A stretch of DNA of 57,466 bases, counting the filler, from Diploschistes diacapsis (taxonomy: Eukaryota): NCBI GenBank assembly GCA_023645945.1. It is 5 parts of 5 records of this genome, joined end to end, with 100 filler letters (N's around TTAATTAATTAA, not from the genome) between each part and the next. Parts side by side here need not be neighbours in the genome. Positions count along the whole stretch, not along the records: positions 34,568 to 45,977 come from JALAIB010000836.1; 4 more parts are not named here. The stretch is one strand, 5' to 3'. The notes under the pieces were generated by a model that searched no databases, had not been told where the DNA came from, and saw only the letters and a program-made list of their open reading frames with translations. Positions 11,438 through 46,077 of the stretch are shown one piece after another. Made by a program: the position numbers and the translations under genes. Numbering within the stretch: position 1 is the stretch's first letter; each line of letters starts with the position of its first letter.

Positions 11438-11537
11438 NNNNNNNNNNNNNNNNNNNNNNNNNNNNNNNNNNNNNNNNNNNNTTAATTAATTAANNNNNNN
11501 NNNNNNNNNNNNNNNNNNNNNNNNNNNNNNNNNNNNN
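11438..11537. other. Artificial contig-joining spacer
   Basis: 44 N + TTAATTAATTAA (stops in all six frames) + 44 N. Confidence 0.98.
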
Positions 11538-14582: not shown

Positions 14583-17500
14583 CTATCGACTCAAGAGTGT
14601 CCACTTCTTTTCAGTTGTGGTATCCATACCTATGACATTCGATAAATCTGCCGAACCCTTTACAACCAACATTCGACACAGAGCAAGATTGCCCTGACGA
14701 GCGGCAATGCACAGAGGTGTATTGCCATAGTCATCTTCCAATCCAGTAGCATCTACCATACCGGCGACTATCAGCTGTCTGACAGTCTCGAGCGTCTTCT
14801 TTTCGCCAGCGGCGCGATTGAAGATGAGCTCGTTAAGAGGAGTTTCACCTTGGTGGTCGCGAAGATTGATTCCTTTTGGCCATCTGTCGTAGAGGATGGA
14901 GAAGATTTCAAAGCTGCCTGTTCTCGCTGCTTGGTGAAATACTGTTCTCCCGTGGCTGTTGACGTACTGGAGGTGCGGCTCGATCCCGCGTTGTTCGCAT
15001 AAAAAGCGAACGGTACGAGTGTGACCTCCGTGAACTGCTTCGCCTACTGATTGGTGCGCGGGAATCGTTTCTTTCCAATCATTTTGCCTCCAATGACTCT
15101 TCCCTAGGATTGCTTCCCGAAGAGTTTCATCAGAGCTAGCTGCTTCAAAAAGCTTCCTAACAAGCACCAAGCAACCGTGGTGTGCTGCTTCACAAAGGAT
15201 TCTGTTGCCGCTCCGCACGACTTCACTGCATAGCTTCCGAATGAGGAAATCGAAAATATCCTCCCATTCGTTAAAAATCGACTGTAAGCGATCCGGCTCA
15301 CGCCAGCATAAAGCGACCTGATAGAAGAAATCTGTTTGGCAAAGTGTGACTCCGAGACCACTGTCCATGACGAGCTGCTTATTGGTTAATATCATATCTC
15401 GCTTCATCAAGTGCTCGACGGCAACCCATAGAGAGTCGGGCAGGAACTGCTCAGCCTGGTCACTGCACTTCAACATGTCGGTAACCGAAGCAGGTGGTCC
15501 AAACATGGCGGTCACTACAAGAGGATCCAATCGGGACATGGCTTCAGGGAAGGGGTACTCGACAAAGAGAACAACTAGGGCGTCGCCACTGTTCCGTCCA
15601 GTTGTTCAGGCGCCGAGATGCCTTGCTACATATTACACTCAAGTCCGCTGGGCTAGGCCTCAGCTCTGCCGCTATTTCTGAGAAATGTTGTGTCCAGTAC
15701 GAGGAGGCATAGCTGAAAAATAAGCCAAGCCCACGGTTTGCCGGGTCGAAGTCTCGGCACAATCTTGCGGTTGCTGTATTCGCAGAAGACGAACTATCAT
15801 TCAAGTCATCAAAGACAGGTCCGTGTTGAGGAGTTCCTGTTCCTCAGTCCCATTTTCAGGGTCTGGGAAAAGGTCGCTAGCTCCTCATTCTTCTAAAAGG
15901 AGATACCTAGGACACCGCTAGAGCAAGTGCGCGTTTAGCTCCGCTTTGCGTGGAGATGTCCGAGCCTTTGACCATGAAGTGCTGAGGCACTCCGACCAAC
16001 TGGCGTCACTTGCAATATTAGTTCTCTAAGAGATCGGTGAAGAAGCCGCACGCGTGATCGATGGTTACTTTGTTCACCAGTGGTGCTAACAAAAGGACGG
16101 ATCAGGTCCATCAACCGCACAGAGCGGGAGAGATCGTCTAACTGACTTATTGTAGTCCTTCATTATCTTTAAATCAATGTGGACTGCATAACTGAGCTCT
16201 CCTGTCGTCAAAGGTCGCCAGGCTACCGCGAGCGTCTCCAGCGCTCGTTGCAGTATTTCTTCGTTCTTGGGCGGACCCAAGCAGCTCTTTTTGAAGAGCT
16301 TGCCGTAGAGCTCAGCAATTTCCTTAGATGAAGGCAGGCTCCGTGGTGCCTTTTCAACGCCTTGTAGATTCTGAATGCGCAGCTTGCCAATGTATTTTAA
16401 TAGCTAATCTTAACCAAAGTGCTGAGCCTTGTGCCATTTGGACAAGCTTGTTTGCAACTTCTTCGTGGATCGCCGCCGGAAGGTCTACTTGACTGGCGAT
16501 TTATTTTGCAATGATACAATCTCTCTCTTTGGATTGATTCATTTTTACCTGGAGAGCTATCGAATGTAGGAATCTTTCAATGCCATCATGATAGCCAGAG
16601 GAGATAAAGACTTTGAGCAGAGCTCTCCGCTTGAAAAGATCGTTCAAGAGATGCAAAAGCTCTTTCCGGGAGGAGGCCTTGCACTCATCGAGACCGTCAA
16701 GGACCAGGAAAATCCATTGCTTAGACGGGGAGATACAATCGAGTATGAGTTTGCATAAAAGGCTTTCAGAATACGTGTGATCTATTTTGCTGCGTGGCTT
16801 GGTCCTTTCATACCACTCTCGAAAGAAGGTCTTGAAATCTGACTTTTGCATAAGTAGTTGCCTTCTGAGACTGCGGTATATGGTCCCCAACTTTATTATT
16901 TCTTGATCATCTTTGCAATAGTATACGCAGACCGGTGCTCTTTAGGTAAGTGGTCAACCAAGTAAGCGGTCTTCGTCGTCTTTCCTAATGCCATGTTTCC
17001 AAACATTGTCAAAATTTTCGGGCCTGATGAGTTCAAGCTCCATTCAGGATAGGCAATATCGGATGTGATCCAACATGCATCGTCAGCATGCTTCTGTAGC
17101 TCGTTTTAACAATCACTTCCTGCTCTCGATCGCGATCAAGGGTGTCACGGACTGGCAGTTCGTTAGTTTTGTTCAGCCGAATTTTCTCTTCGAAATGGGG
17201 CTGACTTAGTCTTTCAGCTTGTTCATCTTAGACTTCTTGAAGCGTCACGAATGTCTCAACCTCGAGAAATTTAGATAAGTTGTCCGTATGTCCATTAAAG
17301 GCGGAGACGATGCGAGGGGGGAAGTTCAGACCTTAAAGCATTCAATGCAAGTCGGAGTACGAAGTTAGATCCTTCAAATACTTCGATGGCTTTCAGAAAG
17401 AATCGCAAGAGGCCATTGTAAACCTTCGCAAGAATCTTTTCCACTCAATTAGCTATGCTCATGCCTGCAGAGGAGGAAAAACAACTTCAAGAACGGCCTT

Positions 17501-22878: not shown

Positions 22879-22957
<79 letters not shown>
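22879..22957 (+). repeat. (CT)n microsatellite at the contig end
   Basis: About 39 CT units running into the spacer. Confidence 0.97.
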
Positions 22958-23057
22958 NNNNNNNNNNNNNNNNNNNNNNNNNNNNNNNNNNNNNNNNNNN
23001 NTTAATTAATTAANNNNNNNNNNNNNNNNNNNNNNNNNNNNNNNNNNNNNNNNNNNN
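22958..23057. other. Artificial contig-joining spacer
   Basis: 44 N + TTAATTAATTAA + 44 N. Confidence 0.98.
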
Positions 23058-32702: not shown

Positions 32703-33314
32703 GGCTTTACGTGACAGTAGATTGGCACCTTGGCGACATGCCGATGCTATAAATCTGGGAAAACAAGTGGACTCTCCAGCGCGCACTAAGCGCCCAATCG
32801 AGGCCGTTGAAGCAAACGCAGAGCAGTCGAACTTGGTCAAGTAAACCGGCTAGAGTGTTTACAATCATTTCTGACATGTAGTAAGACACCGCAGACGCGT
32901 TCAAATCGCGAAAAGAATGGCACAGAGGGTACAATAATGGCAGCCTAGAGAGGATGAAGTAGGACTTGGCAGCAAAAGAGCACTTCCCGACCTGGAATTG
33001 GAAAAGATAGCTCGATAGGATGTTTCCTCCTTGCTAAAGGCGCGCATGGATGTCCAGGCCAGGTACATTTACTCGAGAGCGACTCATCTTGCCCATGTAG
33101 TGATATGAAGAATAAAGTTTGGCGTGCTTGATTCCTTTTATAGCATTTAATTGCGCTTAACCACTAGCACATGAATATAGGCAGGGGATCAAAGCATTGC
33201 AGAGAGCATAGAGGTTAAGATTCGAACCATGCCTGGGGCTGCACCTAGGATGCGATATATTGTCCAGTACCCCACCAGAGCTTCCTCCAGATGCATCCCT
33301 ATCAGCAATTCAAA

Positions 33315-33961
33315 ATGGTAGTTATCTACGCTTCATTTACCACGCCAGTCAATCCGCCAGGTGCGATGCCGATGCTTTCGCACGCACAACTATGGCAGCG
33401 CAAAGTGCGTTATCCTCAGGAATTCTTGCCCGTGGTGGCTTCCTGCGACGTCCAGTCCGAAGCCGTTGACCCAGATAACGAGGGAGTCTTGGTTGTGAAC
33501 CGCACAATCGTCATCAAAGAAGGCCAAGGTCCACCAGGCCGCCAGGGCGGGACCATGAAGGAGATGATCAGAAGCTACGAGCCGACCAAGGTGGACTTCC
33601 ATTAAGAAGATGGAGCGGTGGTTCAGAATCTGATCACGACCGGAACTGATGTTGATGGAGAAGAAGGGATGTATCTGACATTCGTATTGATATCCGGCGG
33701 TCTCAAAAGGAGGCCAAGAACATAAGGAGAAGGAGATTTCGTTGAAGGAAAGATCGTGGCTTTCTCGATTCGCAGTCTCCGATCGCCATGCCCGCAGGTT
33801 GTCAAGGTGATAGGAGTACGCCCAGTGCTGCTTTATAAACCATTGTGTTCCTCGCAGTAACTTCAAATGGGGGCTGACAGTACGGTCTTCAGTTAGCTCG
33901 CGATGCCGTGACAGGCTCTTTGAATACCAGTCGCCAGCTCGTTAAGGAGGGAAAGCTCTGA
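33315..33961 (+). pseudogene. DUF1857/AtaL-like (SRPBCC fold) protein, disrupted
   Basis: FTTPVNPPGA..LSHAQLWQRKVRYPQEFLPVVASC...PTKVDFH*EDGAVVQNLIT...MYLTF and a terminal VKEGKL*. In-frame TAA at 33603-33605. Confidence 0.7.
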
Positions 33962-34467: not shown

Positions 34468-34567
34468 NNNNNNNNNNNNNNNNNNNNNNNNNNNNNNNNN
34501 NNNNNNNNNNNTTAATTAATTAANNNNNNNNNNNNNNNNNNNNNNNNNNNNNNNNNNNNNNNNNNNN
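34468..34567. other. Artificial contig-joining spacer
   Basis: 44 N + TTAATTAATTAA + 44 N. Confidence 0.98.
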
Positions 34568-34704
34568 AGCGGGAATTATTATTTATAATAAGTCGGCGGA
34601 TAATATTTTTAAATTCGGTTATCATAAATTTACTCGAATATTTAGTTCGATTGACGTTTTAAATTCTCGTCACGAATGCGAAGGTAAAATGAATTTTTCG
34701 AATA

Positions 34705-35038
34705 TAAAACGCTAGCGTAAGAATGGGATATTTTATTATCGGGAGTTGGGCCTGATCCGGAAGGATTACGTGTAGCTAGGTATTTGTAAATAAAAGATTT
34801 CGATTTAAAAAGCTGAAAAAAAAATTATTTAAATGGAAGGAAGGTATCGTTAAGTAGTATAGATATTAAACCTACCGGGGTTTAAGGATTACCCGTCTAT
34901 ATAACCATCTCCTGACCCTGCCGTGTCTTGGCAAGCACCTGGGCATTAACCCTACCGTGTCTTGGCAGGGACCTGGGCATTGACCCTGCCGTGGCTTGGC
35001 AGGCCCAGCTTGGCAGGCCCCTGGGCTGGGCTGTCTCA
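34705..35038. mobile_element. Probable solo LTR, RIP-mutated; related copy at 56106-56390
   Basis: 33-bp identity 34747-34779 = 56148-56180 within about 200 bp of alignable sequence. Termini T(G>A)AAAC...GTCTCA. Internal TATATAA and 34-bp tandem repeats. Confidence 0.55.
34914..35002 (+). repeat. 34-bp tandem repeat, about 2.6 copies
   Basis: GACCCTGCCGTGTCTTGGCAAGCACCTGGGCATT / AACCCTACCGTGTCTTGGCAGGGACCTGGGCATT / GACCCTGCCGTGGCTTGGCAG. Confidence 0.85.
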
Positions 35039-35366
35039 CGACCCGTAAATAATTTTAATAAATAATATTTCAGGCCGAGGTCTCGGTGGCGAGAGAAAAA
35101 CAAGGAAGAATAATAATAAAAAAAAACGTATTATAAACATCCGAACGGAGTTAAATACAATAATAAATTAAATAAAAGATTTATAATATCGTTTATTAAT
35201 CTTATTATCGTCGTCGCCGCCGATAACATCCCGTAGCTCTTAATATAAGTTTCTATTTTTTCTTTCTTTTTAATTTTTTCTTTCTCTTTTTCTTTTTTTT
35301 CCTCTTTTACCCTCCCCTAATTTTCTATTATCTTATTTTTTCTTCCGTAATTAAATTATTTAGGGC

Positions 35367-36019
35367 ATCTTTATTCTTTTTTTTAACGACGACGACGCAA
35401 CGCCCTCGTTTATAAAATTAGCGTTAACGACGAGACGCGCACGATAACCGAGCCGAAAAAACGCGTCGCAATTATAAAAAACGAGTTTTATCACGGTAGG
35501 TAAGCGACGGAAACGAGAAATTATCAAAGTTAAAATAAAAGAAAAGACGGCAGCGATAATAACGATAACGATAACAAGAAATTAAAAAACGATAATAAAG
35601 AACGCGACGAAAAAGACGACGGCGATAAGATTTATAAAGATATTAATATAAAAATAAAAAATAAAAAATAAAAAATAAGCAAAACAATAAAAAAAATAAA
35701 CGAAAAATAAGAAAAGAAGAATAAAATATAAGACGCGTAGGGTTAATTAATAGTTAATAATGTCGTAAAAAGGCTATTTAAATATTAATTATTTAAATAA
35801 TTTAAGAAATAATATATTAAGTTCTAAAAAAGAACTCTAAATATATAAAGAAAAAGGAATTTTAATAATAAGAAATGTTATCACGTGATATAAATATTAA
35901 AGGAAATACATATACAAATTTATATAGGACTTAATTTAGCGTGTATGCAGATTAATTGTCAGCCCTACGAGGTTTGTATGGACGGGGTGGGGAGCAGGTG
36001 GTGTTCCCGAATCGCCCTG
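35367..36019 (+). mobile_element. Terminal part of a transposable element, RIP-degraded copy
   Basis: Aligns to the reverse complement of 45341-45977, mostly by C>T and G>A changes. Homology ends sharply at ...GAATCGCCCTG (36019). AT-rich sequence continues leftward to about 35040. Confidence 0.85.
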
Positions 36020-36204
36020 AAAGTATTGCACCTCCGCATCATCATGACCTTGCCCTGTGCAGTGTTCTGAATGGCTCGGATCAAAGAATGCTTGGATTTG
36101 AATGCTCTTTCGTCTTTCTTGACAAGTCTTGGCATACTTTGCAATAAGCATTTCACGCACTTACATATGTAATGGTGATAACAGTCTAGATATGCAAAAC
36201 ATTC

Positions 36205-36705
36205 CCTGCACTTCGAGTAGCTAGCCAGTAACTAACAACATCTTAGAGGGCAATATCTTACACATCTCCAACAGCAAGCCAGCAAGCAGCAATATCTAAG
36301 CATGCCAAATAGCCGACCAGCATCTCCGCTAGCCAGCAGGACACCGAGTACCCAGCAGCATTTCGAGCAGCCAATAGAATCTGAAGCACCCCAAGCAGCT
36401 AGCAGCACCTGAAGAATCCGAGATATCTCAAGCCATTCTAGCTGTTCCAGACAATGCTAGCTGGCTGCTTGGTGTGCGGCTGGTTAGTGGAGGTGCTGGC
36501 TGGTGAAGGTGCTGCCAGGAAGCGGAAATGCTGCCGGCCAGCCATTCGGGGTACTCAAGATGCTACTGGCGTCTGCTGGCTGCCCGAAGTGCTGCATACT
36601 GGCTAGTCAAAGTGCTGCGTAACTGGCTAGTCAGAGTGCTGCTGCATAAACTGGCTGCTCGAGGTGCTGCATGCTGGCTACTCAATGCATGGAGTCAGCT
36701 AGTAG
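36205..36705. repeat. Degenerate foldback: CAGC-rich left arm and GCTG-rich right arm
   Basis: For example GCAGCATTTCGAGCAGCCA (about 36354) pairs with TGGCTGCTCGAGGTGCTGC (about 36652). The right arm repeats ACTGGCTAGTCA(A/G)AGTGCTGC. Strand bias switches near 36445. Confidence 0.6.
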
Positions 36706-36983
36706 GAGCTCTAGCACCGCTACGCCCCTTCTTTCCGCATCTTGGACTGAAGTGTACTCGAACTATTCATCTTCGTACCACGGCTTTCTGTGTGCAAGCT
36801 TTATCACAGTACAGGATTACACCATAAGCGGTAGCTGATGGTCCAATGCGCTGCAACGCAAGGCGGCACAAAATCTGAATCTACTAGTGCAGAATCATCT
36901 CTGTACACAGGTTTGCGTTTCGTTTTGTGACTTGCCTTGATGAAGAGCCTGTGGAAATATGCGGTGAGCATCATGGTCTTGGC

Positions 36984-36990
36984 TATATAA
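36984..36990 (+). promoter_or_regulatory. TATA box of the repeat-peptide precursor gene
   Basis: TATATAA 177 bp upstream of ATG 37161, followed by a candidate 5'UTR intron 37044-37138 (GTAAGT...TTGAC...AAG). Confidence 0.55.
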
Positions 36991-37160
36991 GCCTACCATC
37001 GTGCCCACGGTGAGGATAAGTTGAGCTTTCCACCACTATTCAAGTAAGTCCTATCATTATCTTCGTCTTTGTCTTTATTTACCTTTTCAAAAGAAAGGAA
37101 TCGGCAACGTCTCAACTTCTGTACCATTGACTATCAAGCTTTATCCCACTTTCGACAAAG

Positions 37161-37648
37161 ATGAAGGCTTCTCTGTGCCTGCCCGTCTTGGCTGTTATGC
37201 AAAGTGCTTGGGCCTTGCCGACCAATGTCCGTGAAGGTATTTGCTATTTCGAAACGCAGATTTAATTGCTACTAATGCCAACCCAGGAGAGGTAGCCAAG
37301 CGTGACGAAGACTCCTCTGACTACATCTATGCCTACCGCCCAAAAGAGGTAGCCAAGCGCGAGGAAGACTCCTCTGACTACATCTATGCCTACCGCCCAA
37401 AGGAGGTAGCCAAGCGTGACGAAGACTCCTCTGACTACATCTATGCCTACCGCCCAAAGGAGGTAGCCAAGCGCGAGGAAGACTCCTCTGACTACATCTA
37501 TGCCTACCGCCCAAAGGAGGTAGCCAAGCGTGACGAAGACTCCTCCAACTACATCTATGCCTACCGCCCAAAAGAGGTAGCTAAGCGCGAGGAGGATTCT
37601 TCTGACTACATCTATGCCTACCGCCCAAAGGATACTGAACATGCATAG
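37161..37648 (+). CDS. Kex2-processed repeat protein (KEP), candidate dikaritin-type RiPP precursor, 145 aa
   Basis: Exon 1 37161-37236 encodes the signal peptide MKASLCLPVLAVMQSAWA then LPTNVRE. Intron 37237-37286 (GTATTT...ACTAAT...CAG). Exon 2 encodes six copies of EVAKR(D/E)EDSS(D/N)YIYAYRPK then DTEHA*. Confidence 0.92.
37289..37630 (+). repeat. Six tandem 57-bp coding repeats
   Basis: GAGGTAGCCAAGCG(T/C)GA(C/G)GAAGACTCCTCTGACTACATCTATGCCTACCGCCCAAA(A/G), six times with minor variants. Confidence 0.98.
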
Positions 37649-38078
37649 AAACAATCACTACATCCTCCTCCATACAGGACATTGAGACTCAGATAGATAC
37701 TCGAGCAAGGTAAAGCCTCAATCAGCCGGCTGTGCGGGAGCATAAATCAACTTGAATGGTGAAGCAGGCCATGGTAGCTTTGGTTGTGGCTGTTGCTGTT
37801 GGCCGTGGGTCCTCGTCGAGGTCATGGTCTACAGTAGATTCGTAGTTTATGTCTATGCATCAGTCTACAGTCCCCTTCATGTTTTCTATTGTGATCAAGC
37901 CCTCTTTACGATCAACGCAATATAGACGTGTAGCCAGGAGAATGGATAACAGCCGAGATTTAAGGAAAATATCGCTCACACCAATATTGCGTATATTGCC
38001 AACGATCCTGGACTTGGTACGACCAGGACGAAAGAACCAGTAAGGATTCATATTCCTATCCTTATTTAATTATTTTAT

Positions 38079-39490
38079 CTAGCCCGTTCTTCTCTTGCTT
38101 GCCGAGACAAAGATATCGCATGACGCTGTGTATCTAGCTAAGTTATTTTCAGGAGTTTCACCTTCCTCGGAATTATAGTACGTGGCTTCTTTATCAGATT
38201 CTAACAGACTGCCTCCACGATGTGCAAGCGGTGCTTCGCGGATTCTTCTCTTAAATGCACCTTCCTCATCTTCTACGGACGGTATGTTCATTTTCAAGCC
38301 TGGTTCGCCTGACGGGCCATTAGATCCACTAAACCGTAACCTTTGGCGAGGTCGTGGGTTCTCGGGCGACTGCGTACCACGGCTTCTTTTCACGATGCCA
38401 AGGGCGAAGCTGATGCATTGGGCGACCTGGAAGGCATCGAAGAGGAGCTGCGGCTTCTTCGAAATTTTCTACTTGCCGCTCTCCATTTCTCGAACCCTTC
38501 CGCCTGTAAATCAACCGGCGGCGGCAGGGCCCAATCGGTCCCAATTGAGATGGGCATAAGGACCTTGGCCCAGGTAAACAAGCGGTGGATGGAGAACAGG
38601 AGATGCGACGGTTCTTGTCGAGAGTTTATAGTATCGGCTCGATACTCAAAGGTATGGTTGTTGTGGATCTTCTTCCCATCTTTTGTCGCGAAGGCTGTAA
38701 AACGATATTGGAGGAGCCGGAACCTCTAATCTCAGGGTTAGGCTCTGGTTCTGTTCATCATAGGCAATCGGATCGAATGTGATATAGCCGCTGTCATAGA
38801 ACTTGTGCAGCTCGCTAGATAAGGTAATGACATTTGCTAGGTAGTTGGAAAGAGGTCCGCCACACAATTGCCAAACTTGTAGGTAATCGTCCGCCGGTAA
38901 AATCATGGCCAGAATGAACCAAAACCATATTCCTTTTTCGGAAAGTGCAACAGTATCCGCTGGTATGATATGGGCCATTTGAGAATATGGAAGGTCGATC
39001 AATGAACAGAAGGAACCGGAATTGTCGTCACGTCGGCTTCCATTATCCCTTTTCTGAGATCATCCACGGGCTGAGCCCTCGTGAGTCTGCTTGGGCAGGT
39101 CTTCGGCCATATAATCCGAGATCAATTTGACATCGAGTAAGTTGATAATGAACTGCTCTATCTCGCTAAAGCGAGTCGTTGCCATCGTTTGATCAGTAGC
39201 GGAAGGTTTGGTGGTCTTTCTATGGACCGCTCCAACCGCGAATTTGATACAAAAAAAGCAGTCCTTGGTTCATATTGGAGACCTTCGGCGCTTTCCTGGT
39301 GCCTGCGACTAAGTGCCGTGAAAAGCTGATTGGTACGTTCCCGGTCGACTTGGACATTGAGTAGAAAGTCCAGATACGAAACGCAGACCTTCGTCCCCAA
39401 ACAATGCGCAATTTGCATCACGAATTAATGCTTCTCTCTTTCATCGTGATAGAAAGTTTCGACTGCGACAAGGACTGTGGTGTGGCCATT
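38079..39490 (-). pseudogene. Fungal HNH endonuclease (HNH_2-type) gene, disrupted
   Basis: RRDDNSGSFCSLIDLPYSQMAHIIP...NVITLSSELHKFYDSGYITFDP matches the RD..C...AHIIP...N.I.L...H..FD.G pattern. Flanking parts are broken by stops and frameshifts. Confidence 0.75.
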
Positions 39491-41149
39491 ATCGCTGTAC
39501 TTTTGAAAAAGGATTGCCAGGTAGGAGGGTTGATGATTAAAGTTATATGGCTATAAGCCTGGATATATAACTCATCGCTCAACGTCCTCTTCTGGATTTT
39601 GATCCGAACTTGTTATAAGGGTGAATCATTTCTTTCCTGATTCCATTAATAGTTCGCTCTTCCCACTCGTTTGTTCCCTTCGTAGAATTATGAAGGTTAC
39701 TCCTTTTTGCTTGCCTCGTGCGTAGTAAGTCGCAACAAGAGCCACAACTTTGCTGTCCTGGCCGATTCTTAAGAGACACATTCGGATTCCGTCGGTTGTA
39801 TGATAGGTTGGGCACTCACAAAAATCATGATCCAAAGCTTTCAAGAACGACCCTAGATTTATCACCATATAAGGCGCTGACAAAGAATGGCGTACTGTTA
39901 TAGATGCTTCTACAACGTGGCTGGGGACTTTTATGCGTTACAAACATTGAATATGTAGCGATTCATCGCACAAAAGCCGAGAACTGAGGTTACTCCTTGA
40001 GATCTGCTTTACACATGGTTTCAGGAGGGTGGATGAGGAATCCCCAAAACGGTAAAGAAGGCATTCTGCTAATAGATAAAGCGTTAGGGCTTGTAGAGGT
40101 TTCCAGAGGAGAAGACCAGCCATGTACAAGGTTGCATACCAGCATGATAGTCAGTAGCAAGAACAGGAAGTAAAACACATTTAGTCCAAAGTCTTTATAA
40201 ATGTTTCTTCGCGTGCTGTTCCAGCTGCTATTCCACATACTATTTCAGATGCTGTTCTAGATTCTAATTCTATTGAAAAGAGATGAAATGTACGTCTATT
40301 CTATAAATAAAACTTATAAGGCTTTTAATATAGACTATATACACGCCATATTGGATTTCGTATAGAAAAGTTTTTAATAAAATTTATGGAAATATATGGT
40401 AGCAAACGTGATAAAGATAGGTATAATATTTCCATGTTTATCTATATATTGCCCGATTATATCAAACCGATAATTATGGACAACTTTGCTGATCCCTATC
40501 ATTGTAATCTCGTATATAAAACTTCTGTCGCCGTGAGCTGGAAAGGAAAGCAACATTGGGGTCTAATAAGGAAATGCAGAATCATACTTCCAGTTTTCTC
40601 TGCCAAACCACAAGGTATTCCGAAACCAAGTCCACGGCTCTGCCGGCGGCAGGCGTGGCGGTTGCGGATGTTATGCCCGATGCAGGGCGTTTCCTGAGCG
40701 CCGAGCAGGTGAAAGATTTGATCCGTCACGTTAGGGGATACGCCTCGAGAAAAAGGCTCGGGATCTGGCAGCGGAAAATGGGTGCTTGACAGAAGGATTT
40801 GGAGAGTCACGACAAATTACCCAGGATGCTACAAAGGACCTGCAGGAAGGTCAATTGCCATCCAAGGTTGATACTAACCTCTGAAGATTGGGAGAATTGG
40901 CGCAGGCGTATGGGGACAAGTAACGAGCGATTGACGAACAGTTTAGAGATTTCATGATCTAGACAACTATCACGTTACCGAGAAGAAAGATCACAAAGCC
41001 ACCGTAAATTCTAATGTCTTTTGTTCTGATATTTGGTGCTATATGTATGACCACTGTTCTACGGATCTATCATCTGGTTATTTCAATCCCTTTTCTCCTC
41101 CGAAGTCATGGCCTCGATCTAGACCATTGACATATCCACCTGATGCTCG

Positions 41150-43223
41150 TCCTTTGCCAACAATCCCGTAGCCTTCCTTTCTTCCAGTCAGCCATTACTT
41201 CCGCCCGTTATACGAGACGTGACAAGAAATTTGATACTGAACCTTGTTCATCTCCCTTTTCATGTCTCGCAATCGCTGCTCGAGGTGCCGGACTTTGGCC
41301 TCCAGGCCGTAATATGCTTAATACTGGTTTCCGTTCCTAGCCATTCCTTTTCTCGGTCCTTCATTGCCTCGTTCAGGTCATCGTCGATCTATTTGATATC
41401 GATATTGAGCTGCCGAAAGGTCGAAGCCTTGGCGCTAATGGAAGAATTGATGTTTCCTGGTGCTACCCTTGTTTCACCGAGCGTTCCCGGGTGGTGGGAC
41501 CCGTAGCTGGCAACGGCACCGTGATGGCGGAACCGGTCAGGCGTACGAGGTAGAGGCATCCTAACCCTATCCTCGTCGTATTTCAAAGCTTCTTCGAGGA
41601 TAAGCTGTGGAGGGTGGATCATAGTATTTTCCTCCTCGCTGCGCATAGTCTCTACGGACGAAGGGTTTGCCACCTTGCGAAGCGCCCTCATTACTAAACG
41701 ACTGATGGTATCCATGGCACAAGCCCCCGCGCTAGCCTAGGAAGTCGTTACCATTTCTGGGGAGCGCTCCTGAAGCACTATAGCTCCTTGGACGATGGTC
41801 TCGCGCATCTGCTGCGTCGTAGTAAGACTGAGGGTGGAAACTCCCAGCAGTTGGATCAAGCCTCCTTTGTCTTTTGTTTCGTGGCCCGCCTTCATCTGCC
41901 GGCCTGATGGGCCAATCCCTACACCATAGTTTCCTTTTGGCAGACGACATGGACTGCCTACTTTTACGTCGTGCCACCCAGTCAACTTCCCAATTGATTT
42001 CCTTCAAGGCCTTGATAACGTCCGCGGGGACGTCTGGCCGCCATAGGTTTCCCGGGCGATGGTAGCTCTTTTTATGGTTGCAAAAAGCGAAGACGGGCTT
42101 CCACGAGAGCTTTCTCTACTCCCACGGTGTGTAGCTGGTACCCACGGAAAACTTTCAAAAAGGAGACCTGAAGATGGTACTTTGGGCTTGAGATCTTCAA
42201 GGTGTTCTTAATAATACGATCTCGGATGAAAACCCTGGCTTTGTCGAAGCACTTGGATTGCTCCTGGATAGTACGAAGTTCTCGTTCTCTGGAAGTACCT
42301 TCCTGACTGCGCGTTGCTAATTCCTTGGGTGTTTCGATAGAATACTGCGGGGTATCTGCAACATCATCCTCTGCGCTATCCTCAGGATCGCTTTCTTCTT
42401 CCTCCTCTTCTTCTTCCGATCCGTCCGCCTCCTCGTGTACTGGGCCCAATGGATTTTGGAGTATAGAACTCCTTACGAAGCCGTGCCTGGATGCGACGAG
42501 CGCCCCTCCCTTTGGATCCAGTGACACTCTGGCCGTGTTCCTCTCGAAAGCAGCGATGGACGCCGCTTTCCTTTCGGTGTAGTCTTCCAAAGCCAACGAG
42601 TGCTTCCGCTTCGTGTTTCTCTCGAAAGCAGCAACACTCGCCCGAACGATTTGCCTATCGGCTTCTTTCAGCAACAAGGGCCGTCGCGGCTCATTTCTTT
42701 CGAGATTTGCAACACGCTCCTCCTGGGTGCGCTCGGGAGGCGATAGCGTGCGAGGGCTTAGGGTCTGCATGGGCAGTGGCGACTCAGAAATAAGCCTTTC
42801 TACAGCCGGCGCTGTGGCAGCAATAGCCACATGGCGTTGCCGAGAGCTTGTTTAGGGTTTTACAGCCGCCTTGGTGGGAGCTAACAGAGGTTGCTTTCCT
42901 TGAATGGTCTTTTCTCCAGACCCGCCTTCGCTCTTCCTTTTCCCTTGCGCAGCAGTCGACTCTCCTCACGTGTCTGCTGTCATTAAAAGTGTTGTAAATC
43001 TCGGCTGTGAACCTTCCCAACCGGCCATTCCTGGAGTTTCAATAGGAAGCCTGATCTTGGCTTTGGCAACATACGAGACTTTGGTATGCTCGGCACCGGC
43101 AGCGAGGGCGGAGGAAGCCGAAGGGGTGTCGATCTTTTCTAACTCTGCATCTACTTCTTGAACTCCCCTCGCATTCGAATCATGCACCTCAGATATTTCA
43201 ATTTTTGTTGCTATGTAGAGCAC
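41150..43223 (-). pseudogene. Decayed gene of unknown function (about 2 kb)
   Basis: ORFs 42966-43223 and 42072-42830 share a frame and are separated by stops. 41732-42007 and 41389-41715 follow in shifted frames. Internal AAFERNT duplication and an acidic tract. Confidence 0.5.
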
Positions 43224-43824
43224 GCGAGGCCTTGCTGCTCTTTGTCATCGCGAAATGGAGACCCGTTAGAAGTTATCAATAAAAACTTAAGAGACGGACA
43301 GGGATCGAAAATTATGTATATTTCAGATAATTTGGGCCAATTACACGGGCAAACAAGGGCGAAAAAGAGATGCTCACGTGCAAACATATAGTTTCTTGAG
43401 TTTGTGTCTGAAGAGGTCTCTAGTTTAATGGCATGAACTAATGATAAACCCTCATTTCACTGGAAATCCCACTTTTCTTTCCTTTTCTTTTCCCCATTGA
43501 CCTTGCGATTCAATCTCTCTACTTCCATTTGTGGTGCTGCAAGATCACGATGAATATGCAGAACGAGCAAGAAAGTGGGCTGAGATTCAGAGAGATAGAA
43601 GCTCAAATGCTTGACAGATACGAAAACAACGAGTCTCTGCGGCCGCATGGCATCAGAACAAAGTCTTAGCCGCAGCTGGTGCGTCTATACGACATTTTTG
43701 GGATCTCGATATGACCGACAGAAAAGGCAAGGCCAGCGTCTTTCTTGCCACCGATTAAGATTTTGTTAATTTCGAAACACTCAAATTTCTTAGCAAGAGG
43801 GCAAGGAAGATAGACAAGGCACAA

Positions 43825-44905
43825 GTGCCGGCCATTCTGCGCGATTGGGAAGAAAGGAAAACTCGCAAGTGCGGCTGGGCAACTCAGAGCAGAAAGATTA
43901 CCAAGGCCGATTTGCTTACCTGGCAGGCCGATCAGACGGATTGGCCAGAAGGAAACATTACTGTTCCACACAAGCTAGTCAGATACGGAGGCCCAGCAAA
44001 AGAACAGCCTCCAAGCAAACGAAGAGCGCCACGCAAGCGTCAATTGTCGAATAAATACGGAGAAAGCAGCCCGGGTAAGAGAAGCAAGCAGACAAACAAG
44101 GAGCTGCGGGAATATGTCAGAGCTCTGCGAGCCGAGATCGCATGGCTGAAGAGGGGACGGAAGGCGAATGGCAAGCACGATGAGGAAGATACAACGGCCA
44201 AGGCTGCGTCCTCTTTCAGTCACAAGGACCATAGCGTCCGAAGAGAGGGTTTGGTTGCTGATCCAATCAAGCATCATAAAGCATTCCTTTACACCTCAGG
44301 GGAAGAGGACGAGTCACGCAGCGCCTTTCAGGTAAGGGACGACTTGGCCATCAACGACGAGATACCAGATCAAGAAGTACAGCGGTTTGGGAACGAAACA
44401 CGGATGACGGAGGAACACGAAGCAACAGCTCTTGAACTCGATTTAACAAAGCTTCAATCCAACAGCCCATGGAGCCGTGATTCTCGATATGACCCGGAAG
44501 ATAGGTCTTTATCCCATGCACAAGTCAATAGAAGGACATTTGACTGGAAGGAAGAAGACGCAGGCAGGATCCGGACCTTACGAAACTTCCAGATGAAATA
44601 AGATAGTCGAGAAAAGGACAGAGAATATAGGAACCTGAGGGATGGAGCTTTAGAGTCTTCGGATGGTTCGCAACACCAGCCATCAAGCGAGGTCGATCGT
44701 GAAAGACTTCACTGGCCAAGACGAAGAGGATCTTATGTTTATAGCAGACCAGAACAGTCGGTGTCTGGCAGCGGCAATGCGCCAAGGAAGAATAGTCCAA
44801 CACCGTCTTCCCGTAGAAGCGGCGGCGGCGGCGGAAGCGGAGACGGCAATCGGCTTATTCGCGCAAGCACTGCTAAATCACCGGAAGCTTCTGAGTTCGA
44901 CGTGA
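43825..44905 (+). pseudogene. Hypothetical basic/charged protein, probably disrupted
   Basis: 258-aa ORF without an ATG start, followed after a stop and frame change by coding-like ORF 44663-44905. Confidence 0.4.
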
Positions 44906-45340
44906 TGGGCTATATGTCTTCCTTATGCTGGAATGGTAAGAAGCGACCACCCTGTCTTCTGGATAATCATTTCCGGCTTGAAGATTATGTGCGCTCGCTC
45001 CCATAGCTACGACCGGCCGCTGATGCCTAACGCATCAAACCCCTCGAGGTAATTCCTCTGCCAATTAACCAGAGAATAATGGCACTCGCGCGGGGAGCGT
45101 GGCGCAGCCCAGTGATCGTGGCGCCAAGTTGGCCGCTGCAAATTCGACGCAGTCAGACACGTGCCAACCCGGTGGGAGGAGCAATTCAAAAGCTGGTATT
45201 GAGCGCCGGAAGCAAGAGGAAGATGATAGAAGGAAGACCGATAACTCGGTCCGCGAGGAGGAGGCTGAGGCTGGTAAAGAGGCTGGGCAGCAGAGAAATG
45301 GTTAGGAAAACGAACCCCAGGATGATAGGACAGATAAACA

Positions 45341-45977
45341 CAGGGCGATTCGGGAGCACCACCTGCTCCCCACCCCGTCCATACAAACTCCGTAGGGCTG
45401 ACAATTAATCTGCATACACGTTAAGTTAGGTCCCATATAAATTTGTATGTGCATTTCCTCAAGTCATGTAATATTCATGTCACGTGATAACATTTCTTAT
45501 TATTAAAACTCCCTTTTCTCCATACATTTTAGAGCTCTTTTTCAGAGCTTAATATATCGCTTATTAGGCCATCTAGATGATCAATATCTAGATAGCCTTC
45601 TTGCGACATTGTTAGCTGCTGGCCAGCCCTGCGCGTCTTATGTTTTGCCCTTCTTTTGCTCCTCTCTCGTCTGCTCTTTTTGCTGTTTTGCTTGCTTTCT
45701 CTCCTCTTTCTTCTGTTCTTGTGCTAACACCTTTGCAGATCTTGTCGCCGCCGTCTCCTGGTCCCTCACCGCCGTTGCCGCTACCATCGCTGCCGCCCTC
45801 TCCTCTGCCTTGGCCCTGGCAGCCTCTCGCTTCCGTCGCTTACCTGCCGTGGTGAGACTCGTCTCCCACGGTTGCGACGCGTTCTTTCGGCTCGGTTGTC
45901 GTGCGCGCTTCGTCGCTGGCGCTGGTTCTGTGGACGGGGGCGCTGCGTCGTCGCCGTTGGAAGAGGAGGATGGGGAT
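45341..45977 (-). mobile_element. Terminal part of the same transposable element as 35367-36019; little-mutated copy, truncated by the contig end
   Basis: Terminus CAGGGCGATTCGGGAGCACCACCTGCTCCC on the + strand. The minus strand carries the end of an ORF (...PATKRARQPSRKNASQPWETSLTTAGKRRKREAARAKAEERAAA...EEQKKGKT*). Confidence 0.85.
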
Positions 45978-46077
45978 NNNNNNNNNNNNNNNNNNNNNNN
46001 NNNNNNNNNNNNNNNNNNNNNTTAATTAATTAANNNNNNNNNNNNNNNNNNNNNNNNNNNNNNNNNNNNNNNNNNNN
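45978..46077. other. Artificial contig-joining spacer
   Basis: 44 N + TTAATTAATTAA + 44 N. Confidence 0.98.

Follow-up and report, generated by a model that had tools for sequence, protein, structure and literature searches.

Kex2-processed repeat proteins (KEPs) are defined in the survey of Umemura (2020, PMC7329392) by a SignalP-4.1-positive signal peptide and at least three tandem repeats, each of at least 8 amino acids, between KR, KK, RK or RR sites, with no repeat longer than 100 amino acids. The survey catalogues 7878 KEPs and reports a DUF3328 gene within 15 genes for 22% of them (30% of Ascomycota KEPs), the average separation being 3.09 genes, and none within that range for 78% of all KEPs and 70% of Ascomycota KEPs; 2560 are homologue-free "stand-alone" KEPs. 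As described there and by Le Marquer et al. (2019, PMC6339444), stand-alone KEPs are small secreted precursors with a signal peptide, dibasic-delimited repeats and no homologues. A gene of the same build was found in a 57,466-nt stretch of the Diploschistes diacapsis assembly GCA_023645945.1, which consists of five contigs joined end to end and is hereafter called the window. Located at 37161–37648, it is a real, previously uncalled and unannotated gene of this lichen-forming ascomycete and encodes six tandem repeats around a YIYAY core; the reading we favour, with somewhat more than even confidence, is that of a stand-alone KEP from which linear peptides are released. It differs from the stand-alone KEPs described in those surveys in that its repeat sequence is new and no protein collection searched contains the gene.

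A first-pass annotation of the window had placed a gene with one intron and a product of 145 amino acids at this position, and all of its features are present at the coordinates collected in Table 1. The spliced coding sequence of 438 nt translates into 145 residues and a stop codon, and the putative intron runs from GT to AG and contains a branch motif, CTAAT, roughly 12 nt 5′ of the acceptor. When the intron is retained, translation from exon 1 terminates after 34 residues, and the repeat frame holds no ATG-started open reading frame (ORF) of its own; the repeats can therefore be translated only by way of the predicted splice. As had been pointed out, exon 1 escaped ORF calling. More than one choice of splice sites is compatible with the frame, as 50 GT-AG pairs leave it open, but all of the short ones (50–59 nt) yield an identical architecture and the conclusion is therefore independent of the precise sites. 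Between 36960 and 37163 the only ATGs are those at 36973 and 37161, with none between the TATA box and the start codon. The signal peptide that had been claimed is recognised by inspection as 18 residues with Lys as the second, a hydrophobic core of 11 residues whose mean Kyte-Doolittle hydropathy is 2.31, and Ala-Trp-Ala occupying positions −3 to −1. By inspection, the precursor thus carries the signal peptide of a KEP, and its six KR sites and 6.0 copies of a 57-nt unit provide the tandem repeats.

Tandem Repeats Finder describes the array as a period of 57 nt in 6.0 copies (92% matches, score 579) or, alternatively, as a period of 114 nt in 3.0 copies (96% matches). The first residue of YIYAY falls at positions 38, 57, 76, 95, 114 and 133 of the protein, the pattern S-D/N-Y-I-Y-A-Y ... 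A-K-R is present in all six units, and the 23-nt core occurs six times in the window, always within the gene, and not once in 100 shuffles. Six 19-residue repeats, each with a KR site, had been proposed; the six KR sites, the acidic stretch and the invariant YIYAYRPK were all found, but the KR sites delimit five 19-residue units ending in KR, and the sixth, terminal unit ends in DTEHA without one. Units 1–4 are near-identical, and most changes sit in units 5 and 6.

Purifying selection acts on this reading frame. The six copies vary at nine columns, seven of them synonymous and two conservative (D/E and D/N, both in the acidic flank), where 79% of random changes are expected to be non-synonymous (binomial P = 4.4e-4), and the same nine changes read in either of the other frames give one synonymous and eight non-synonymous. 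It is very improbable, then, that the locus is no KEP gene of this kind at all, being either a non-coding 57-nt minisatellite that is open by chance in one frame or, as a variant, an alpha-type mating pheromone precursor. For a non-coding array speak the lack of RNA support, the lack of homologues in the protein searches and the RIP-degraded repeat (RIP, repeat-induced point mutation) that adjoins the gene. Against it speak the frame-specific synonymous excess and the signal peptide, as do the TATA box and the in-frame intron. The pheromone variant draws on the survey's report that precursors of pheromones, too, are KEPs with no DUF3328 gene in the neighbourhood (PMC7329392), an architecture described for yeast MF-alpha1 and the Ppg1 precursors of Pezizomycotina. 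The present gene differs from these in having no MF_alpha or MF_alpha_N Pfam match (E up to 1) and no X-Ala or X-Pro (Ste13) dipeptides behind KR, where the residues are D/E-E-D, and its predicted peptide is acidic and tyrosine-rich. Alpha-pheromones are rich in Trp and Pro, and the hallmarks of the ascomycete forms, Trp and Gly-Gln-Pro, are missing from the YIYAY peptide.

In the reading we favour, the signal peptide would bring the precursor into the endoplasmic reticulum, a Kex2-type protease in the late Golgi would cleave behind each of the six V-A-K-R sites and a Kex1-type carboxypeptidase would trim the trailing K-R. The predicted unit in the Kex2 register is [D/E]EDSS[D/N]YIYAYRPKEVA followed by KR, so the secreted set would comprise a 13-residue pro-piece, five 17-residue peptides of this form and one 19-residue C-terminal variant, most likely linear and at most lightly trimmed. 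An aliphatic residue at P4 and an acidic residue at P1′ around V-A-K-R resemble the Kex2 sites of alpha-factor and make a favourable context for cleavage. The predicted peptides are acidic (isoelectric point about 4.1–4.3), free of Cys and tyrosine-rich, with linear monoisotopic masses of 2019.906, 2033.922, 2018.922 and 2287.987 Da; these four exact masses, together with a short synthetic target, are of practical value. An extracellular role in the lichen thallus, as a multi-copy signal or effector, may be proposed. No KEP-derived lichen peptide was found described in the literature searched, and the gene opens three questions to testing: the secretion of such peptides by lichen fungi, their cross-linking or sulfation, and a response of the algal partner.

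Kex2 processing of this protein is at present a prediction, which leaves some room for an intact 127-residue mature chain acting as a Tyr-rich, charged matrix or surface protein, for example through Tyr cross-linking by laccase or peroxidase or through stacked YIYAY strands. Its 14% Tyr would suit such a protein, as would the strand-like alternation of Y-I-Y-A-Y and the 12 short strands that AlphaFold2 draws in the precursor. The same model, however, supports no fold, with a mean predicted local distance difference test score (pLDDT) of 50.3, a predicted template-modelling score (pTM) of 0.29 and no residue at 70 or above in pLDDT; the lack of a confident fold of its own agrees with a propeptide and not with a folded protein. 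The mature chain, scanned for such features, contains no Cys, no glycosylphosphatidylinositol-type tail and no N-glycosylation sequon. Moreover, V-A-K-R followed by an acidic residue occurs in every unit, and KR is invariant at the protein level even though the Arg codon shifts synonymously between CGT and CGC. We regard an unprocessed secreted protein as improbable.

The first-pass annotation went further and took the gene for a candidate dikaritin precursor, a type of ribosomally synthesised peptide that is modified post-translationally (RiPP). In this reading, one or more UstYa/DUF3328 oxidases encoded off the contig or elsewhere would link the Tyr side chains of Y-I-Y-A-Y to beta-carbons, and the flanks would then be removed by peptidases, leaving a mono- or bicyclic peptide. 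The layout is that described for UstA, the ustiloxin precursor of Aspergillus flavus, with a signal peptide and many repeats in which a Tyr-first core follows an acidic residue and is itself followed by KR, and the class feature of a repeated Tyr core flanked by acidic residue(s) and KR is present in all six units. UstA has 16 repeats of 13–14 amino acids with the core YAIG, compared with six of 19 and the core YIYAY here, and it is described as clustered with UstYa and UstYb (DUF3328), the tyrosinase UstQ and a methyltransferase, none of which is found on the contig of this gene. AprA, the precursor of asperipin-2a (core FYYTGY), is alike in its Tyr-rich core within a KEP and offers a precedent in which one DUF3328 enzyme is reported to form two Tyr-ether rings in a Tyr-rich hexapeptide; it belongs to a four-gene cluster with aprY, whereas no aprY-like gene was seen on the contigs scanned here. 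Known dikaritin cores stand zero to two residues before KR, whereas six residues (RPKEVA) separate core and KR in this gene. A further parallel is GigA, the epichloecyclin precursor of Epichloe (PMC10540207), likewise a KEP with a Tyr-containing core from a mutualistic symbiotic fungus. As reported there, gigA shares a cluster with gigB, gigC and kexB, and its expression is induced in the host; the present gene is known from its sequence.

Association of a DUF3328/UstYa gene with the precursor is the class-defining feature of dikaritins (PMC12048977), and tailoring enzymes were sought among ORFs of at least 40 amino acids on the gene's own contig and at least 75 amino acids on the other four (241, 114 and 50 ORFs; Pfam cut-offs of E up to 1 for 32.9–41.2 kb and E up to 0.1 for 41.0–46.0 kb). 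Across the five contigs, this ORF-based scan, which is blind to RIP-degraded genes, returned no match to DUF3328/PF11807, tyrosinase, P450, methyltransferase or S41/S8 peptidase, and no transporter was matched on the 11.4-kb contig of the gene. The six-frame translation contains ten occurrences of the HxxHC motif, and no ORF holds a pair of them. The contigs measure 11437, 11420, 11410, 11410 and 11389 nt, in descending size order, and are separated by 100-nt spacers (44 N, TTAATTAATTAA, 44 N) at 11438–11537, 22958–23057, 34468–34567 and 45978–46077. That these are distinct contigs from a fragmented assembly is also borne out by the microsatellite at the end of the second, by the incomplete kinase domain at the start of the fifth and by the database self-match of the fifth contig's aconitase, for which the longest contig is given as exactly 11389 nt. 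As the spacers separate distinct contigs, gene order across them carries no meaning and genes beyond them are not neighbours of the repeat gene, and the sequence physically linked to it amounts to 2.6 kb upstream and 8.3 kb downstream.

Base rates from the KEP survey are among the reasons for which a linear secreted peptide is ranked first. Most catalogued KEPs have no DUF3328 gene nearby, as given above, and among those of two lichen fungi in Table S2 of Umemura, none is DUF3328-linked (0 of 7 in Umbilicaria pustulata and 0 of 5 in Endocarpon pusillum, or 0 of 12; PMC7329392). Thousands of KEPs are on record, a third of them without relatives, and the addition of one more is in itself unsurprising. 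The tests made here neither support nor exclude the dikaritin reading, which is disfavoured by these base rates and which we consider doubtful; the alternative already raised, a linear signalling peptide, is no less likely. The earlier interpretation is thus partly supported, in that the gene is a KEP while the dikaritin step gains no support from the present tests.

Several points nevertheless weigh against a linear, stand-alone product. Tyr is found in the repeats of 65.6% of DUF3328-linked KEPs as against 38.2% of unlinked ones in the survey (PMC7329392), an enrichment that favours a dikaritin, although tyrosine also occurs in 38% of the unlinked class, and the arrangement of an acidic residue, a Tyr-first core and then KR is that of UstA. 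The linkage scan is weak, covering downstream only 8.3 kb and upstream only the 2.6 kb to the contig end, RIP-degraded and AT-rich, so that half of the neighbourhood is unseen. Pasinato and Singh (2025, PMC12048977) report UstY/HXXHC (DUF3328) genes as widespread across Lecanoromycetes, with two conserved clusters in which no repeat precursor was found and whose precursors may lie elsewhere; lichen UstY clusters lacking recognisable precursors would leave room for a gene such as this one. That it is itself the "missing", unlinked precursor of lichen UstY oxidases strikes us as unlikely, though if true it would yield a new Tyr-cross-linked peptide. The 21 nt encoding YIYAYRP are invariant in the six copies, third positions included (P about 0.007–0.01 against an even-spread expectation), and zero synonymous variation in seven core codons is not explained by peptide-level selection alone; the identity of the core probably stems from recent duplication of the dimer and homogenisation by unequal crossing-over. 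Finally, transcription and splicing are predicted from sequence and the signal peptide is judged by inspection only, the runs that carry the locus being DNA contigs with no RNA run among them and the three DNA runs compared containing no splice joints.

The motif D-Y-I-Y combines an Asp-Tyr sulfation signal with the Y-I-Y start of the plant hormone phytosulfokine-alpha (DYIYTQ), and the gene could accordingly be imagined as a phytosulfokine (PSK)-like hormone mimic, delivered in many copies to the photosynthetic partner of a lichen fungus. D-Y-I-Y behind an acidic stretch, as here, is also seen in PSK precursors and in Ascomycota multi-repeat PSK homologues, and a review citing Yuan et al. (2021) describes the fungal homologues as one signal peptide followed by repeated units, a KEP-like layout shared by this gene (PMC8618561). 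Nematode mimics vary at positions 5 and 6 (DYIYDN, DYVYDN and DYIYTE) according to a preprint (PMC13081851), which would tolerate some departure from the canonical ending. The match nevertheless covers four residues only, and Ile at the x of an acidic-Y-x-Y core is not rare. The fungal PSK homologues reported hold the exact YIYTQ (PMC8618561), and in PSK precursors the motif is described as C-terminal or released as a pentapeptide (PMC13081851), whereas here Ala-Tyr replaces Thr-Gln and the motif continues A-Y-R-P-K, within RPKEVA, with no cleavage site behind it. Pfam PSK (PF06404) gave no match at E up to 1, and no C-terminal D-Y-[IV]-Y-[TD]-[QNE] motif is present. A link between phytosulfokine and lichens or algae was not found in the literature searched. 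To our knowledge, no fungal tyrosylprotein sulfotransferase has been described, and we know of PSK receptors as leucine-rich repeat (LRR) kinases of land plants and of none from chlorophyte algae. We therefore hold PSK mimicry to be the least probable of the readings, and highly improbable as such; if true, peptide-hormone mimicry, known from plant pathogens and nematodes, would occur in the lichen symbiosis as well. SCP8 (Hua et al. 2025), considered as a possibly relevant case, is by its description a different effector.

The claim that the core matches no characterised product held up, as YIYAY had no match as a peptide in the 8.4 million papers searched and no convincing sequence relatives were recovered. 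In a word-indexed protein search with the exon-2 translation, 6660 candidates were scored and none came within the cut-off of E = 0.01. Exhaustive phmmer against 1.84 billion representative proteins returned ten matches at E up to 1e-3 and no self-match, and the gene is therefore absent from the public protein sets searched. Seven of the ten were inspected at the sequence level, leaving out P0003, P0005 and P0009 (559–2270 amino acids, E from 5.7e-7 to 7.3e-4). P0001, P0002, P0006, P0007, P0008 (a Cymbomonas protein) and P0010 were rejected as relatives, being compositional or repeat matches only; P0010, encoded on a contig of 1.2 kb, has EDSNDYMYSYCPQ repeats that lack KR. The best ESM Atlas match (0.77, a bacterial cluster, recognition 872) is uninformative. 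The motifs YIYAY, DYIY, YIYTQ and related ones are absent from the supplements of the KEP catalogues, which list accessions rather than sequences and are hence uninformative on this point. Locus L001, considered as a homologue, was set aside: it is GC-rich, its long ORF on the opposite strand resembles a bacterial membrane protein, and its 'EVAKRDED' is an out-of-frame chance match.

The remaining inspected match, P0004, is a 136-residue Joint Genome Institute (JGI) protein which, like the present gene product, has a signal peptide and the build of a small KEP, with four repeats of the form KR-DVEESDYTYIVF-KR-DEGMA-KR. It shares the acidic-S-D-Y-x-Y...A-K-R pattern around an SDYTY core and is 39–42% identical to the array (BLASTP E = 4e-12 pairwise, phmmer E = 1.5e-6 library-wide), but differs in having a second KR immediately after the core. 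A family search with P0004 recovered only P0004 itself, a singleton. Shared ancestry with the present gene is possible and, as the repeats inflate the score, a weak lead.

Among DNA runs, the locus was present with no differences in a lichen-metagenome run, probably the sample of origin, and at about 96% identity in a relative in run X2, and the gene thus exists in a related genome. The X2 piece covering 37604–37884 shows 11 differences, ten of which are listed, and all ten of those lie beyond the stop codon; X2 also carries an intron substitution at 37244. Relative to the window, it is shorter by 16 nt at 36479 and by 24 nt at 36598, in each case by whole units of a minisatellite. This minisatellite (36479–36685, periods of 16 and 23–24 nt) is promoter-proximal, about 480–680 nt upstream of the start codon. 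A low-depth rock-metagenome contig in run X3 matches 37214–37348 with seven differences, from the last part of exon 1 across the intron and through the first repeat. Past 37348 it continues into unrelated sequence that is open in frame, a hint of a relative whose second unit differs.

Table 1 Features of the repeat gene and of its contig, in window coordinates
Feature	Coordinates	Strand	Description
Gene's own contig	34568–45977		11,410 nt, artificial spacer on each side
Inverted duplicate, RIP-mutated AT-rich copy	35385–36019		Counterpart at 45341–45958; end 1.1 kb upstream of the gene
TATA box	36984–36990	+	TATATA at 36984, ~170 nt upstream of the start codon
Exon 1	37161–37236	+	76 nt; start codon, predicted 18-residue signal peptide (37161–37214), first pro-piece residues
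Putative intron	37237–37286	+	50 nt, GTATTT...CTAAT...CAG; excision restores the frame
Exon 2	37287–37648	+	Remaining pro-piece, six 19-residue repeats, 5-residue tail, TAG stop at 37646–37648
Tandem array	37289–37630	+	6 × 57 nt = three 114-nt dimers; unit EVAKR[D/E]EDSS[D/N]YIYAYRPK
HNH_2-domain gene	38649–39059	−	Pfam match, downstream of the repeat gene

The HNH_2 domain is the only Pfam match on the gene's contig, and several low-complexity ORFs without a Pfam match also lie downstream. The two copies of the inverted duplicate agree in 464 of 645 aligned columns, and G>A or C>T changes account for 136 of their 144 substitutions, a bias that is a one-sided RIP signature. GC content is 0.30 in the upstream copy and 0.51 in the downstream copy, the latter reaching to 19 nt from the contig end. 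The region 34568–35960 is AT-rich (GC 0.19–0.45), with RIP indices of 1.08 for TpA/ApT and 0.59 for (CpA+TpG)/(ApC+GpT). A dispersed repeat of 140 nt is common to this contig (34707–34846, an AT-degraded copy) and the fifth contig (56108–56247), at 80% identity.

Four genes, those of AtaL (33249–33602), an F-box/LRR protein, a DUF7703 protein and a rhodanese, were rejected as neighbours of the repeat gene, being located on other contigs. The AtaL-family (PF08982) ORF, which has the look of a secondary-metabolism neighbour, lies on the plus strand of the third contig (E = 1.3e-17). The second contig carries NPHP3_N/NACHT and ankyrin-repeat ORFs on the minus strand at 14586–16941 that resemble a fungal NOD-like receptor (NLR)-type gene, and a (CT)39.5 microsatellite at 22879–22957, exactly at its end, which is the likely cause of the assembly break. 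The fifth contig starts partway through a haspin-kinase domain, no N-lobe being present on the far side of the spacer, and encodes an aconitase with 76–79% identity to its counterparts in Xylographa, Hypocenomyce, Candelaria, Gyalolechia, Xanthoria and other lichen-forming ascomycetes and 85–86% identity to further entries.

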